A stretch of DNA of 64,000 bases from positions 11,681-75,680 of the IMG/VR virus record IMGVR_UViG_3300028883_000047; one strand, given 5' to 3'. Under the pieces are notes generated by a model. It ran no database searches and was not told the origin of the DNA. It was given only the letters and a program-made list of their open reading frames with translations. Made by a program: the position numbers and the translations under genes. The DNA is from a virus (taxonomy: Duplodnaviria; Heunggongvirae; Uroviricota; Caudoviricetes). This document shows, piece after piece, positions 163 to 34,923 of this stretch (position 1 is its first letter; the number at the start of each line of letters is the position of its first letter).

Positions 163-238
163 TGGCTACCCCTCCAGGACTCGAACCTGAACCGTGAGAG
201 TCAAAGTCTCATGTGCTAACCAATTACACCAAGGGGCA
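163..238 (-). tRNA. tRNA-Gln (anticodon UUG)
   Basis: Manual cloverleaf on minus strand: 7-bp acceptor, GTTCGAGTCC T-arm, anticodon loop CTTTGAC, encoded CCA. Confidence 0.75.
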
Positions 239-245
239 ATAAATT

Positions 246-322
246 TGGCGGAACGTACGGGATTCGAACCCGTGATCTCGACAGTGACAGTGTCGCGTGT
301 TAGGCCTCTACACTAACGCTCC
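246..322 (-). tRNA. tRNA-Asp (anticodon GUC)
   Basis: Minus-strand cloverleaf: acceptor GGAGCGT/ACGTTCC, T-loop TTCGAAT, anticodon loop CTGTCAC, CCA encoded. Confidence 0.75.
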
Positions 323-328
323 ATAAAT

Positions 329-404
329 TGGCGCCGCTGAAGGGAATCGAACCCTCCTGAATCTCGCAGACAACGAGTTGCCATGCCCAGATGACTACAA
401 CGGC
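329..404 (-). tRNA. tRNA, second GUC-anticodon species (Asp-like) with atypical loop TTGTCTG
   Basis: Cloverleaf folds (acceptor GCCGTTG/CAGCGGC, T-loop TTCGATT, CCA) but anticodon loop has U37 and a 27-43 mismatch. Confidence 0.55.
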
Positions 405-410
405 GTAAAT

Positions 411-487
411 TGGGGTGTACGACGGGGATCGAACCCGCATCTGCTTGATTCACAGTCAAGAGCTTTACCAATTAAGCTACATACACC
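411..487 (-). tRNA. tRNA-His (anticodon GUG) with extra 5' G(-1)
   Basis: Anticodon loop CTGTGAA; extra G-1 opposite discriminator C73 typical of tRNA-His; T-loop TTCGATC; CCA encoded. Confidence 0.75.
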
Positions 488-497
488 ATAGAAAATG

Positions 498-526
498 TTG
501 AATATTCATAAATACTAATATATAAT
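498..526 (+). promoter_or_regulatory. sigma70-like promoter on plus strand (TTGAAT-17nt-TATAAT)
   Basis: -35 TTGAAT at 498-503, perfect -10 TATAAT at 521-526, 17-nt spacer; followed by strong SD and ATG at 557. Confidence 0.45.
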
Positions 527-556
527 ACCACCACTTTAATTTTTAGGAGAAATATC

Positions 557-682
557 ATGATGGAATTCATCGCTTCTTGGGGTCCTTACACCGGCATTAT
601 TGCGGCAGTTGTTATTGGCGCAATGGTAACACGTAAGTGTGATTGTTCACTTCTGAGCTGGACACCTGTCTGCAGGAAATAA
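557..682 (+). CDS. small hydrophobic protein (41 aa), plus strand
   Basis: AGGAGA SD 6 nt upstream of ATG; predicted TM peptide MMEFIASWGPYTGIIAAVVIGAMV...; below ORF-track size cutoff. Confidence 0.4.
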   Translation: MMEFIASWGPYTGIIAAVVIGAMVTRKCDCSLLSWTPVCRK

Positions 683-686
683 TGCC

Positions 687-839
687 ATGAGTCCAATGAT
701 AATTGTGTTGTCATTGGCTGGCTTCCTTGTCTTCTCCGGGATGGTGATGGCACTTGGTGCCTTCTTCGCCCGCGAGAAGAAATTGGACGAGGAAGTTGGG
801 ACCACGCATAGTGGGCATCGGTCATCCTCCCACAGCTAA
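687..839 (+). CDS. small membrane protein (50 aa), plus strand
   Basis: ATG 4 nt after previous stop, AGGAAA upstream; hydrophobic N-terminus MSPMIIVLSLAGFLVFSGMVMALGAFF then charged tail. Confidence 0.35.
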   Translation: MSPMIIVLSLAGFLVFSGMVMALGAFFAREKKLDEEVGTTHSGHRSSSHS

Positions 840-856
840 TTACTTCCTCGATAAAT

Positions 857-935
857 TGGTCGGGGTGGTAGGATTCGAACCTACGACCTCCCGGTTCCAG
901 GCCGGGCCGTCTGACCAGACTGACATTACACCCCG
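857..935 (-). tRNA. tRNA with UGG (Pro-like) anticodon; atypical loop CCTGGAA (C33) and irregular D-arm
   Basis: Good acceptor (CGGGGTG/CACCCCG), T-arm GTAGG-TTCGAAT-CCTAC, CCA; anticodon stem CCCGG/CCGGG. Confidence 0.5.
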
Positions 936-1027
936 ATATGCGCGTCCCTAACTTGCGTCGTGTCGTTACAGCGAGAGACGCGCGGCACTCTCTGTACACA
1001 TTGGCATTACACAAGCTACTACTATGT

Positions 1028-1104
1028 TGGTCTCCATGGAGGGATTCGAACCCCCGTGATCTCCGCCCCAAACGGAGTGACTCACCAAACTAGCCTACAT
1101 GGAG
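1028..1104 (-). tRNA. tRNA-Pro (anticodon UGG)
   Basis: Acceptor CTCCATG/CATGGAG, anticodon stem CTCCG/CGGAG loop TTTGGGG, T-loop TTCGAAT, CCA. Confidence 0.7.
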
Positions 1105-1504
1105 ATGGATGTGGCGGCAATATTAACGACCTTTGCTCTTAATACTGGGACGGTCAAGCAGGTGCCACGAAACTAAAAAGGTCTATTATTCACTACCGGA
1201 CCTCATCGGTAGAGTCTTTTAAGGGCGACTGCACCACGTCCCCAAAACGCAGTGCTCCCTTTGTTCTTTCCAGCGGATGCCTTTCGACTTATCCCCGCGT
1301 GGCTGGCACCATCCCTCGCTACAGGTAGGTGAGTTCCGACTCTGTTATCCGGGGAGGAGCTATGCTCAACTCACATGCGTAATAACAGGTCCCGTTCTTA
1401 CGATCGTTATCGGCCTTAAGCGTCCTACCGATAATCAACCTCTTTAAAATTTTACTCTACTTTTCTTTTCTAGTCAACAGTTCTTTTCTAACTTTTTTGA
1501 AGCA

Positions 1505-1545
1505 TTAAAAAAGGCGCTTCAGTTTCCTGTAAGCGCCTTTCTCGG
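1505..1545 (-). terminator. rho-independent terminator (GGCGCTT..AAGCGCC hairpin flanked by A- and T-runs)
   Basis: Stem 1511-1519/1531-1539; on minus strand followed by TTTTTT; ends the leader/ncRNA transcribed from promoter at 1782-1810. Confidence 0.55.
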
Positions 1546-33217: not shown

Positions 33218-33295
33218 TGGTGGGAGCACAGGGATTCGAACCCTGATCAGCCGGATTAAGAGTCCGGGGTACTAGCCTATTTGTACGACACTCCC
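33218..33295 (-). tRNA. tRNA-Lys (anticodon CUU)
   Basis: Anticodon stem CCGGA/TCCGG loop CTCTTAA; D GTAC/GTAC; T-loop TTCGAAT; CCA. Confidence 0.7.
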
Positions 33296-33301
33296 ATAAT
33301 T

Positions 33302-33377
33302 TGGTGGAGCCTGCGAGGATCGAACTCGCGACCTCTACAATGCCATTGTAGCGCTCTCCCATCTGAGCTAAGGCCCC
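33302..33377 (-). tRNA. tRNA-Ala (anticodon GGC)
   Basis: G3-U70 pair, anticodon stem CTACA/TGTAG loop ATGGCAT; T-loop TTCGATC; CCA. Confidence 0.7.
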
Positions 33378-33429
33378 ATACTGTTGGTCTTTGATACCCA
33401 GGACCAATGTCTAAAGACTGGGATAGATA

Positions 33430-33627
33430 TTATCTAATTCTTCTAATCGAAGAGCGTAGCTTCATGCGGCGAATATACCGCTTGAGTTTACTACCTGATA
33501 GCTTACGCCCCATGTTTGTCTTACGGAGCTTCTGCTTCAGTCGCATTCTTCTCATCATCTTACGATATCGAGAACCACGCTTCCTCCGACCATGATGTAC
33601 TTTCTTTCTATCATGTCTCGCAGGCAT
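33430..33627 (-). CDS. extremely basic small protein (65 aa, ~50% Arg/Lys)
   Basis: AGGAGA SD 7 nt upstream of ATG; sequence MPARHDRKKVHHGRRKRGSRYRKMMRRMRLKQKLRK... Confidence 0.45.
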   Translation of the reverse strand: MPARHDRKKVHHGRRKRGSRYRKMMRRMRLKQKLRKTNMGRKLSGSKLKRYIRRMKLRSSIRRIR

Positions 33628-33819
33628 CTTATTTCTCCTAGCTGGTTAATCATTTGATTCCCATGCCAGCTAGGCTTGCTAGCTGGCGATCAGCTAGCAA
33701 CTTCATTAACGTGTTTCATCTCCTTCCCTCCTATGAGGTTAGTTGTTTGGTGAGGCGTCTACTAGGAGCAGCCGATCTTAGTCCGTCGCTGCTCCGTTCG
33801 GGAGTACTCACACGCCTCA

Positions 33820-34125
33820 TTATTCTTTGTCAGGGTATTGAGCATCAACTTCCTCAATGTATGCATAAGGACTTTGCCCTGGCTCAAACATTTTGATGTT
33901 CTTAAAGCCATTCTCTTCGGTGATTAGGCTTTCGTCCTCGTTGATTGAACCTTCATACTTTCCGGCGCCTTTTTTGTTCATCAAGGCGCCAGTTGCTGGA
34001 TCAATACTCCCCCACTTGGTGTGCGGTTTGCCGATAGGCTCAACATAGTACTGCTTGCCCGTTCGGATCGATACCACAATGTGGCGTCCAGTATGATCTG
34101 TGTCTGTGAGGAATTGTGCCCTCAA
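33820..34125 (-). CDS. hypothetical protein (101 aa)
   Basis: ORF. Confidence 0.4.
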   Translation of the reverse strand: MRAQFLTDTDHTGRHIVVSIRTGKQYYVEPIGKPHTKWGSIDPATGALMNKKGAGKYEGSINEDESLITEENGFKNIKMFEPGQSPYAYIEEVDAQYPDKE

Positions 34126-34170
34126 GTCTTTAGTTACCCCATTTTCGTTCTCCTGTTGTTGGGTTGTAAT

Positions 34171-34246
34171 TGGTAGGCCGCCTGGGACTCGAACCCAGAT
34201 CTGCCGGATTAAAAGTCCGGTGTTCTAGCCATTGAACTAACGACCC
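34171..34246 (-). tRNA. tRNA-Lys (anticodon UUU)
   Basis: Anticodon stem CCGGA/TCCGG loop CTTTTAA; T-loop TTCGAGT; CCA; acceptor has three G-U pairs. Confidence 0.6.
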
Positions 34247-34252
34247 ATTGTT

Positions 34253-34329
34253 TGGTACGCCCGGTTGGAATCGAACCAACTCCGATCTGGTTAAAAGCCA
34301 GGTGTGCAATGCCTTTACACTACGGACGC
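34253..34329 (-). tRNA. tRNA-Lys (anticodon UUU), second copy
   Basis: Anticodon stem CTGG/CCAG loop CTTTTAA; T-loop TTCGATT; CCA. Confidence 0.6.
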
Positions 34330-34335
34330 ATAATT

Positions 34336-34414
34336 TGGTGGAGAATATCGGACTCGAACCGATCTGATTTCTCGGGTGCAAGCCGAGTGTCCACCCCTGG
34401 CAGACCCATTCCCC
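34336..34414 (-). tRNA. tRNA-Ala (anticodon UGC)
   Basis: G3-U70, anticodon stem CTCGG/CCGAG loop CTTGCAC; T-loop TTCGAGT; CCA; 3-bp D-stem. Confidence 0.6.
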
Positions 34415-34422
34415 ATATTGTT

Positions 34423-34500
34423 TGGCTGTGTCGGTAGGGCTCGAACCTACACTCCCCGCTTTCAAATGACGGCCCGTCGTTCGGGAGCTCTGCCACGACT
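34423..34500 (-). ncRNA. tRNA-like element (canonical T-arm GTAGG-TTCGAGC-CCTAC plus CCA; 5' half non-canonical)
   Basis: 3' half looks like a tRNA but I could not find a complementary 5' acceptor strand; possibly degenerate or type-II tRNA misfolded by hand. Confidence 0.3.
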
Positions 34501-34762
34501 AATCAGCTTTCGTTTCATGTTCATCTGTCTTTTCGGCTTGTACGATCGAATGGAAGCATCCACGCATCATCATTTCGAACTGTGATGCGTTTTGACAGCC
34601 TATAGTATGTTACTAATAACCTTTCGCCTTTGAGTCTTACAACACAATAAATCTGTCCGGTTCCGCCAAGAACCAGAAGGCCCATAGTCTCTTTATTGGA
34701 CGTGATTTTGGATTGGCGTCCTACTAACACATCCTCAGATGGAATTGGGCAATACCACAAAC

Positions 34763-34839
34763 TGGCTCCGGTAAGAGGGATCGAACCTCTCTACACCTCG
34801 GTTAACAGCCGAGTTGGTTTCTCCATTGACCATACCGGA
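34763..34839 (-). tRNA. tRNA-Asn (anticodon GUU), second copy; irregular D-arm
   Basis: Anticodon stem CTCGG/CCGAG loop CTGTTAA; T-loop TTCGATC; CCA. Confidence 0.55.
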
Positions 34840-34845
34840 ATAAAT

Positions 34846-34923
34846 TGGTAGCTCTCGCCAGGGTCGAACTGGCCACCTCTCGATTATCGGTCGAGTGCTC
34901 TACCTACCATGAGCTAGAGAGCT
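34846..34923 (-). tRNA. tRNA with GAU (Ile) anticodon, second copy; atypical loop CCGATAA (C33)
   Basis: Acceptor AGCTCTC/GAGAGCT, D GCTC/GAGC, anticodon stem CTCGA/TCGAG, T-loop TTCGACC, CCA. Confidence 0.55.

Follow-up and report, generated by a model that had tools for sequence, protein, structure and literature searches.

Transfer RNA genes with C33 or an altered position 37 in a large tailed phage, and their counterparts in other phages

tRNA genes of the window and their anticodon loops

This study concerns a 64,000-nt stretch of viral DNA (Caudoviricetes; positions 11,681 to 75,680 of IMG/VR record IMGVR_UViG_3300028883_000047; hereafter, the window) and the anticodon loops of the transfer RNA (tRNA) genes that it carries in two clusters, at 163–1104 (cluster 1) and 28364–34923 (cluster 2). 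Genes were predicted with ARAGORN and with the Rfam covariance model RF00005, whose gathering score is 29 bits. ARAGORN returned 21 tRNAs, all on the minus strand and every one with an encoded CCA end; the covariance model recovers the same 21 and adds one at 29316–29418, giving 22 genes in total, and 22 of 22 score at least 29 bits (Table 1). Few features of tRNA are as strongly conserved as U33 and a purine at position 37. C33 was found in 3 of the 22 genes, those for Val-GAC and for the variant copies of Pro-UGG and Ile-GAU, with U33 in the other 19; a pyrimidine at 37 occurs only in the variant Asp-GUC, which also has G38, and all other tRNAs of the window have a purine there. The binomial probability of three C33 genes among 22 is 0.019 against a phage background of 2.6% and 0.0003 against the 0.6% of our bacterial sample.

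An earlier note on this DNA, based on folding by hand, had called attention to repeated C33. The coordinates and loops that it quoted were reproduced exactly by ARAGORN, and the repeated C33 is real according to both ARAGORN and RF00005. Neither predictor moved an anticodon to regain U33, an outcome that the note had itself considered, and the variants lie above the Rfam threshold. Since each loop is 7 nt long and closed by a regular stem, no other register restores U33; the RF00005 alignment of the variant Pro gene independently puts C at position 33. Mis-registration of the anticodon is ruled out, as two predictors and GenBank annotations concur. Same-anticodon pairs with differing loops had been described for four amino acids, and this holds for Pro-UGG, Ile-GAU and Asp-GUC; the two Val genes are not a true isoacceptor pair because their anticodons differ (UAC and GAC). 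The gene counts stand for Lys (three: CUU and two UUU), Asn (two) and Ala-type genes (three; in the third, a tRNA-Ala(UGC), 30 nt are inserted into the anticodon loop), and Thr genes number four (UGU twice, GGU, CGU) rather than three.

Table 1. tRNA genes and tRNA-maintenance genes of the window.
Feature	Position	Strand	Anticodon loop and other features	Score or support
tRNA-Gln(UUG)	163–238	−	CUUUGAC	ARAGORN, Rfam
tRNA-Asp(GUC), canonical	246–322	−	CUGUCAC	63.8 bits
tRNA-Asp(GUC), variant	329–404	−	UUGUCUG (U37, G38); 4-bp anticodon stem; G73 kept	32.9 bits
tRNA-His(GUG)	411–486	−	CUGUGAA	ARAGORN, Rfam
tRNA-Pro(UGG), variant	857–935	−	CCUGGAA (C33, A37; Pro normally G37)	46.1 bits
tRNA-Pro(UGG), canonical	1028–1104	−	UUUGGGG (U33, G37)	49.1 bits
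T4 Rnl1-type RNA ligase (sealing step of tRNA repair)	12297–13439	−		PF09511 1.1e-18; PF20819 1.5e-19; phrog_562 5.7e-107
Calcineurin-like metallophosphoesterase	14021–14752	−	two genes from Rnl1	PF00149 4.5e-13; phrog_246; weak match to phrog_8238 'RNA ligase'
PTH2-type peptidyl-tRNA hydrolase (archaeal/eukaryotic-type)	17615–18013	−		PF01981 7.1e-31
tRNA-Thr(UGU), copy 1	28364–28439	−	positions 36–41 UAAUCA	72.7 bits
tRNA-Ala(UGC)-like	29313–29418	−	G3:U70, A73, CCA; 30-nt anticodon-loop insert	Rfam 50.1 bits
tRNA-Thr(GGU)	30421–30496	−		ARAGORN, Rfam
tRNA-Thr(CGU)	30513–30587	−		ARAGORN, Rfam
tRNA-Val(GAC)	30593–30669	−	GCGACAU (G32, C33)	60.6 bits
tRNA-Ile(GAU), canonical, bacterium-like	31185–31261	−	CUGAUAA; 90% identical to enterobacterial tRNA-Ile	68.5 bits
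tRNA-Asn(GUU), copy 1	32041–32116	−	positions 36–41 UAAUCG	
tRNA-Val(UAC)	32199–32272	−	CUUACAA	ARAGORN, Rfam
tRNA-Thr(UGU), copy 2	33077–33151	−	positions 36–41 UAACGU; 3-bp D stem	29.3 bits
tRNA-Lys(CUU)	33218–33295	−		ARAGORN
tRNA-Ala(GGC)	33302–33377	−	AUGGCAU	ARAGORN
tRNA-Lys(UUU), two genes	34171–34246, 34253–34329	−	both CUUUUAA; positions 36–41 UAAUCC in one, UAACCA in the other	
tRNA-Ala(UGC)	34336–34414	−	CUUGCAC; atypical D arm	37.1 bits
tRNA-Asn(GUU), copy 2	34763–34839	−	positions 36–41 UAACCG; aberrant D arm	36.4 bits
tRNA-Ile(GAU), variant	34846–34923	−	CCGAUAA (C33); anticodon stem CUCGA/UCGAG; A73-CCA	52.2 bits
tRNA nucleotidyltransferase (CCA-adding enzyme)	39606–40751	−		PF01743, PF12627; phrog_2244 1e-97

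The variant Pro gene retains the C1-G72/A73 identity elements of tRNA-Pro and has one additional nucleotide between the acceptor and D stems. Val-GAC shows, in addition to C33 and G32, a T-loop of sequence CUCGACU, with C54 for the conserved T54, as a second departure from the consensus.

Conservation in relatives and across phages

Relatives of the phage were sought with the phrog_2087 protein encoded at 5046–6194 of the window as an anchor, by a metagenome protein search and contig look-ups; single-protein queries of IMG/VR gave no close relatives. The anchor proteins of the relatives are 47–71% identical to that of the window, and the tRNA arrays were fetched from their contigs. Two contigs, L001 and L002, were set aside as evidence of conservation, since at 99.995–100% identity they represent the same phage and are uninformative. 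A second Pro-UGG with A37 adjoins the canonical G37 Pro-UGG in all of the relatives' arrays fetched; it has C33 in the window, L012, L005, L006 and L018, and U33 in L003 and L008. Asp with U37 was found again in L012, L008, L024 and L040, and the exact UUGUCUG loop of the window's variant Asp in L012, L161 and L168. The comparison with L012, where the counterparts of the variant Pro and Asp genes lie at 10185–10263 and 10019–10094, is the most pointed: between the two phages identity reaches 100% for the variant Pro and 96% for the variant Asp, but only 77% for the canonical Pro and Asp genes and 65% for the anchor protein. This likeness reflects either a much stronger constraint on the variants or a recent exchange.

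Base pairing of the variant Pro gene was examined across seven sequences, among them the orthologues from L005, L006, L018 and L003. In its stems 98.5% of cells are paired, against 36–44% in controls with slid partners, and 12 of 21 pairs have changed on both sides; shuffles gave 5.0 ± 1.6 such pairs, and 0 of 500 reached the observed number. The stems of the variant Pro have been kept by compensatory change across homologues. From these comparisons we take the variants to be genuine tRNA genes, probably maintained by selection, in an array that holds a bacterium-like and a variant copy for several isoacceptors.

Cluster 2 is not syntenic in the relatives: no tRNAs were found at the equivalent place in L014, and the cluster is not conserved in the relatives fetched. 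Class-level pattern scans, instead of orthologues, were therefore used for the Ile-C33 and Val-C33 genes of the window. When IMG/VR was scanned by a structure-aware pattern for Ile(GAU) genes that have a CCGAUAA loop, at least 120 matches were obtained, and the matches listed include 108 real tRNAs with 100 distinct sequences. An unbiased rescan, which allowed either pyrimidine at 33, found 20 C33 and 87 U33 genes in viral contigs and 0 C33 and 108 U33 genes in bacterial genomes (20/107 versus 0/108; Fisher's exact p = 3e-7), an estimate that holds for genes with C32 and a GCTCA...AGAGC D arm. The C33 genes are as well formed as U33 phage tRNAs, with 20.9 versus 20.8 stem pairs, 83% versus 77% T-loop consensus and 86% versus 54% encoding CCA. 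They share a stem signature, C29-G30-A31 paired with U39-C40-G41 (101 sequences), and lack the bacterial C27-G43 pair; the nearest neighbour of a C33-Ile gene belongs to its own class in 83 of 105 cases (79%; 37% expected). The variant Ile of the window fits this class, reading CUCGA-CCGAUAA-UCGAG and ending in ACCA.

Position 37 yields comparable classes. Among viral Asp-GUC genes 29 of 114 have U37. The U37-Asp class comprises 30 distinct sequences including that of the window, with G73 in 24 of the 24 that encode CCA and a consensus T-loop in 93% of the class; the variant Asp of the window fits its definition in having a GUC anticodon, U37 and G73. A37 is present in 40 of 123 viral Pro-UGG genes, and 14 loci hold G37 and A37 copies together. 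Within Pro, C33 is tied to A37 (8/9 versus 38/123, p = 0.0009, an approximate value because the sequences are related); across all tRNAs the link is not significant (p = 0.26), and it holds only within Pro.

C33 is concentrated in certain isoacceptors. In non-targeted viral tRNAs it occurs in 7 of 21 Val-GAC, 4 of 23 Leu-GAG, 3 of 5 Ala-GGC and 2 of 4 Pro-GGG genes, and in 0 of 99 Gln-UUG, 0 of 95 Phe-GAA and 0 of 85 Trp-CCA genes. The Val-GAC C33 class mainly has U32 (UCGACAU/C). The loop of the window's own Val-GAC, GCGACAT in DNA letters, was rejected as a class probe: its 75 matches included only 4 real tRNAs, the level of chance.

Cultured phages carry the same genes. C33-Ile is found in Aeromonas phages 25, 44RR2.8t, 65 and phiAS4, in Klebsiella vB_Kpn_IME260 and other T5-like phages, in Vibrio Achelous, Thalassa and Luma, and in Pectobacterium My1, Xanthomonas XacN1 and Rhizobium RHph_Y65; Xanthomonas BUDD has two copies and no canonical Ile in its array. 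U37-Asp is carried by Pseudomonas PaoP5, JG004 and about 165 related records and by Acinetobacter Acibel004 and TAC1, and in one PaoP5-like genome (L131) C33-Ile adjoins U37-Asp. GenBank labels these rule-breaking genes as ordinary 'tRNA-Ile' or 'tRNA-Asp'. That C33 is a peculiarity of this genome, the apparent premise of the earlier note, is thus wrong; it marks widespread phage tRNA classes.

Some further loops of this type were seen in passing. A phage tRNA-Met(CAU) with the loop CCCAUAA (L049 20829–20903, L303, L366) has C32-C33, as in the initiator tRNA of multicellular eukaryotes; Asn-GUU with CCGUUAA occurs in at least six IMG/VR loci; and the cultured Mydovirus vB_KpnM_KB57 of Klebsiella (L513 4544–4619) has a tRNA-Lys(CUU) with the C33 loop CCCUUAA, labelled tRNA-Lys in GenBank.

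Proposed escape from position-37 modification and competing explanations

We consider it nearly as probable as not (about 0.45) that the variants are decoding tRNAs that escape host modification at position 37 and, thereby, tRNA-cleaving nucleases (tRNases) that read the loop or its modification. The genes with their loops, their conservation and covariation, their restriction to phages and the presence of repair genes are observed; that the modification is lost, that nucleases are resisted and that the variants serve in translation is inferred. The variants would still decode despite their altered loops, and each substitution would delete the modification that the host places at position 37. 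C33 would be an anti-determinant for the synthesis of N6-threonylcarbamoyladenosine (t6A) at 37 by TsaBCDE, A37 in tRNA-Pro could not take the 1-methylguanosine (m1G) of TrmD, and U37 in tRNA-Asp could not take 2-methyladenosine (m2A). The site requirements for TrmD m1G37 and for m2A37 are established enzyme specificities. With C33, moreover, U33 and A37 could no longer pair within the loop; as t6A ordinarily serves to keep that pair from forming, the loop would have no need of the modification. Variants of this kind would escape tRNases that read loop sequence or modification, t6A being a positive determinant for PrrC, and translation could therefore continue while host-type tRNAs are cut; Rnl1, the phosphoesterase and the CCA-adding enzyme would supply repair in parallel.

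Several steps have published parallels. U33C abolishes t6A formation by Escherichia coli TsaBCDE (PMC8887486). For PrrC, t6A acts as a positive determinant, and it also keeps U33 and A37 from pairing (PMC13602947). The Saccharomyces cerevisiae tRNA-Leu(GAG) has a natural C33 and is functional, and a change to U33 hardly alters its decoding (PMC13492127). This tRNA and the initiator tRNA-Met of multicellular eukaryotes resemble the phage genes in that they function with C where U33 is nearly universal, and phages also have C33 versions of Leu-GAG and Met-CAU genes with CCCAUAA. The cellular cases differ in being single, lineage-fixed genes, whereas phage C33 occurs in elongator families (Ile-GAU, Val-GAC, Pro) that many phages carry and that the bacterial sample examined lacks. 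As the window encodes Rnl1, a metallophosphoesterase, a CCA-adding enzyme and PTH2, pressure on the tRNA pool is plausible.

The general hypothesis that phage tRNAs evade host tRNases through changes in the anticodon loop is that of van den Berg et al. 2023, eLife (PMC10264068). T5 tRNAs (Lys, Thr and Asn) resist PARIS by substitutions at the AriB site, and the phage tRNA replaces the cleaved one (PMC12409363); neutralisation of PARIS by a virally encoded tRNA is also reported (PMC11464382), and a T5 tRNA-Tyr acts against a retron effector (PMC11555353). AriB targets include Lys-UUU, Thr-UGU and Asn-GUU, with Thr-CGU as a minor target, and its recognition sequence is U36AAUC|N41, a change of U39 abolishing cleavage (PMC12409363). 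In the window these isoacceptors are represented by two Lys-UUU, two Thr-UGU, two Asn-GUU and one Thr-CGU genes, all in cluster 2, and in each pair C39 replaces U39 in one of the two copies. C39 is common anyway in phage Lys-UUU (44/103) and in bacterial Asn, which weighs against evasion of AriB. The changes at U39 are therefore only suggestive of such evasion. Like the tRNAs described here, anti-defence tRNAs of the PARIS/T5 type are phage counterparts of host isoacceptors in which the anticodon stem-loop is altered; the published cases differ in that they compare phage with host tRNA at known cleavage sites (36–41) and do not mention position 33, a pyrimidine at 37, or canonical and variant pairs within one phage. 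Our literature searches turned up no account of phage tRNA classes with C33 or U37, and PMC10264068 and PMC12409363 do not mention position 33. The concept of tRNase evasion is known. What seems to be undescribed is that the odd loops form frequent, phage-restricted classes, each tied to an isoacceptor, which depart from the U33 and purine-37 rules and for which published results suggest a link to loss of the modification at 37.

A number of observations weigh against escape from modification as a route to nuclease resistance. E. coli IleRS is helped by t6A37. PMC8887486 reports t6A37 to be a positive determinant for isoleucylation, so a tRNA-Ile lacking t6A might charge poorly. Enrichment of C33 extends to tRNAs that read no ANN codons and are never modified with t6A (Val-GAC, Leu-GAG, Ala-GGC, Pro), and loss of t6A therefore cannot be the whole story. 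Among the matches listed, the C33 gene is the sole phage Ile(GAU) seen in 99 of 108 viral loci and so does not, as a rule, act as a 'spare' for a canonical gene in the same phage. The overall excess of C33, 64 of 2456 viral tRNAs (2.6%) versus 1 of 163 bacterial ones (0.6%), is not significant with this small bacterial sample (p = 0.19); of the contrasts in C33 between phages and bacteria, only that for Ile is solid. A Pnk-type kinase (P-loop polynucleotide kinase) was not found in the open reading frames (ORFs) around Rnl1. Finally, C33 leaves cleavage by colicin E5 and gamma-toxin unchanged, so a direct block of nuclease recognition by C33 is unsupported. The earlier note had read the variants as a nuclease-resistant spare set, an idea that is partly supported. 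That they are conserved, structurally intact and phage-specific and are accompanied by repair genes agrees with it; the lack of an effect of C33 on the two nucleases just named and the occurrence of C33-Ile mostly as a lone copy do not.

A more tentative extension of the same proposal is an unrecognised loop code of phage tRNAs that differs by isoacceptor. Ile-GAU, Val-GAC, Leu-GAG and Pro would use C33, Asp would use U37 and Pro also A37; these tRNAs would be modified poorly by the host enzymes that place t6A, m1G or m2A at 37, would still decode, and would thereby be hidden from defence nucleases that rely on the modification or on the loop sequence. If it were true, 'stealth' tRNAs would make up between about a fifth and a third of the Ile, Val-GAC, Asp and Pro tRNAs of phages, and they would show by natural example how far a working translation system tolerates breaches of the U33 and purine-37 rules.

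Much of the same evidence is explained by modification-independent decoding with no role in defence, in which host TsaBCDE, TrmD and RlmN become limiting during massive phage tRNA expression or host shut-off, and C33, A37 and U37 loops fold and decode without a modification at 37. Removal by C33 of the U33-A37 pair that t6A otherwise blocks, the company of C33 with A37 in Pro, the normal decoding by the yeast C33 tRNA, the occurrence of the classes as the only copy in many phages, so that they are not 'spares', and the absence of C33 protection against two characterised nucleases all agree with it. It leaves unexplained the side-by-side canonical and variant copies in this phage and its relatives and the investment in Rnl1-type repair, and a general limitation of enzymes does not predict the complete lack of C33 in Gln-UUG (0/99), Phe (0/95) and Trp (0/85). 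We rate it as rather unlikely, and place escape from modification with a role in defence above it.

Decoy function, in which the variants do not decode and instead act as competitive inhibitors that bind and sequester host tRNases, modification enzymes or sensors, appears to us distinctly unlikely. In a changed loop context the variants keep their anticodons, and with them C1-G72/A73 of Pro and G73 of Asp as identity elements, which would suit a decoy, as would the better conservation of the variants than of the canonical copies between the window and L012. The neutralisation of PARIS by a virally encoded tRNA might seem to be a precedent, but there the phage tRNA replaces the cleaved tRNA; full cloverleaf covariation, including the acceptor stem, together with an encoded CCA, suits an aminoacylated, translating tRNA, and in many phages the C33 form is the sole phage Ile(GAU).

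Altered decoding is less probable still: C33, A37 or U37 would shift wobble or frame, through broader reading or programmed +1 frameshifting at CCN, and phage genes would exploit this. Loss of m1G37 in tRNA-Pro promotes +1 frameshifting, and it is in family-box tRNAs with G34 (Val-GAC, Leu-GAG, Ala-GGC, Pro-GGG, Ile-GAU) that C33 is concentrated. No recoding signal was seen, and none was sought; the yeast C33/U33 swap has a minimal effect on decoding, and the loops stay at 7 nt, unlike those of classical frameshift suppressors.

Decay of redundant copies into pseudogenes, or artefacts of prediction, could account for variants that score below their partners (Asp 32.9 versus 63.8 bits; Thr copy 2 at 29.3 bits) and for some irregular D arms or an extra nucleotide, but is effectively ruled out by conservation and covariation: the same loops are kept, with compensatory stem changes, across phages whose anchor proteins are 47–71% identical, at least 100 distinct C33-Ile and 30 distinct U37-Asp sequences have intact stems, T-loops, CCA ends and identity bases, and conservation is higher in the variant Pro and Asp than in their canonical partners.

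Whichever account holds, the U33 and purine-37 rules are broken systematically in particular isoacceptors of hundreds of phages, therapeutic and model phages included. If C33 blocks t6A37, and t6A37 is a determinant for PrrC, the classes provide a testable handle on the tRNase-evasion hypothesis; they may also serve as natural templates for engineering modification-independent tRNAs. For annotation they are a warning that low-scoring, rule-breaking phage tRNAs are not pseudogenes.

The phage genome, tRNA maintenance genes and minor features

At the DNA level no GenBank phage is close to the window. Its protein set, which includes an NAD-dependent DNA ligase, HNH endonucleases, NAMPT, gp30.3, a virion protein and a PurZ-like enzyme, among others, indicates that it is part of a large (jumbo), uncultured phage. 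The nearest proteins, at about 40% identity, are those of Xanthomonas phages X1, BUDD, XacN1 and Xoo-sp13, and by this measure the phage is probably a distant relative of BUDD, X1 and XacN1. The window contains a partial tRNA repertoire: in L011, a metagenome contig of the same phage, cluster 1 runs past the window start and has about 12 further tRNAs at 16082–20004 (Leu-CAG, Gln-CUG, two Tyr with the loops CUGUAAC and CUGUAAA, two Glu-UUC, Arg-ACG, Trp, Phe, Ser-GCU, Leu-GAG and Leu-UAG), so that the phage has at least 34. Large phage arrays such as those of XacN1, BUDD, KVP40-like phages and T5 are alike in having tens of clustered tRNAs among small ORFs and HNH endonucleases, with many isoacceptors doubled, and in BUDD the layout is the same, with Pro, Asp, Asn, Tyr, Glu, Phe and Ile doubled. 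These arrays have differed in their interpretation, since they are usually explained by codon usage and rule-breaking at the level of the loop is absent from their annotation.

PTH2, the CCA-adding enzyme and Rnl1 form an unusually complete tRNA maintenance set. The Rnl1-type ligase has both the adenylyltransferase and the C-terminal domain of Rnl1, its gene is syntenic in the metagenomic relatives, and the nearby metallophosphoesterase is a candidate RNA end-healing phosphoesterase. The arrangement resembles the T4 Rnl1/Pnkp system that counters PrrC in that a Rnl1 homologue lies near a phosphoesterase, with a CCA-adding enzyme elsewhere in the window. It differs in that the phosphoesterase is of the calcineurin type, whereas the phosphatase of T4 Pnkp is of the HAD type, and in that no kinase was detected among the neighbours of Rnl1 in the window.

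A 161-aa ORF at 586–1071 on the minus strand, which overlaps both Pro tRNAs, is almost certainly not a gene, because its tblastn 'homologues' in relatives merely mirror tRNA conservation. The Ala(UGC)-like gene was caught by Rfam, and by ARAGORN only when introns were allowed. Its insert lengthens the anticodon stem into a long hairpin in the minimum free energy fold and is much too small for a group I intron; Rnl1 is encoded in the same genome. We know of no bacterial splicing route for a 30-nt insert of this kind, and the intron-like tRNA-Ala did not recur in the other loci scanned. Lastly, an adenylosuccinate-synthetase homologue of the PurZ type is encoded on the minus strand at 58510–59733 (phrog_1211, 1.7e-55) and could mean that the genome contains 2-aminoadenine (Z).

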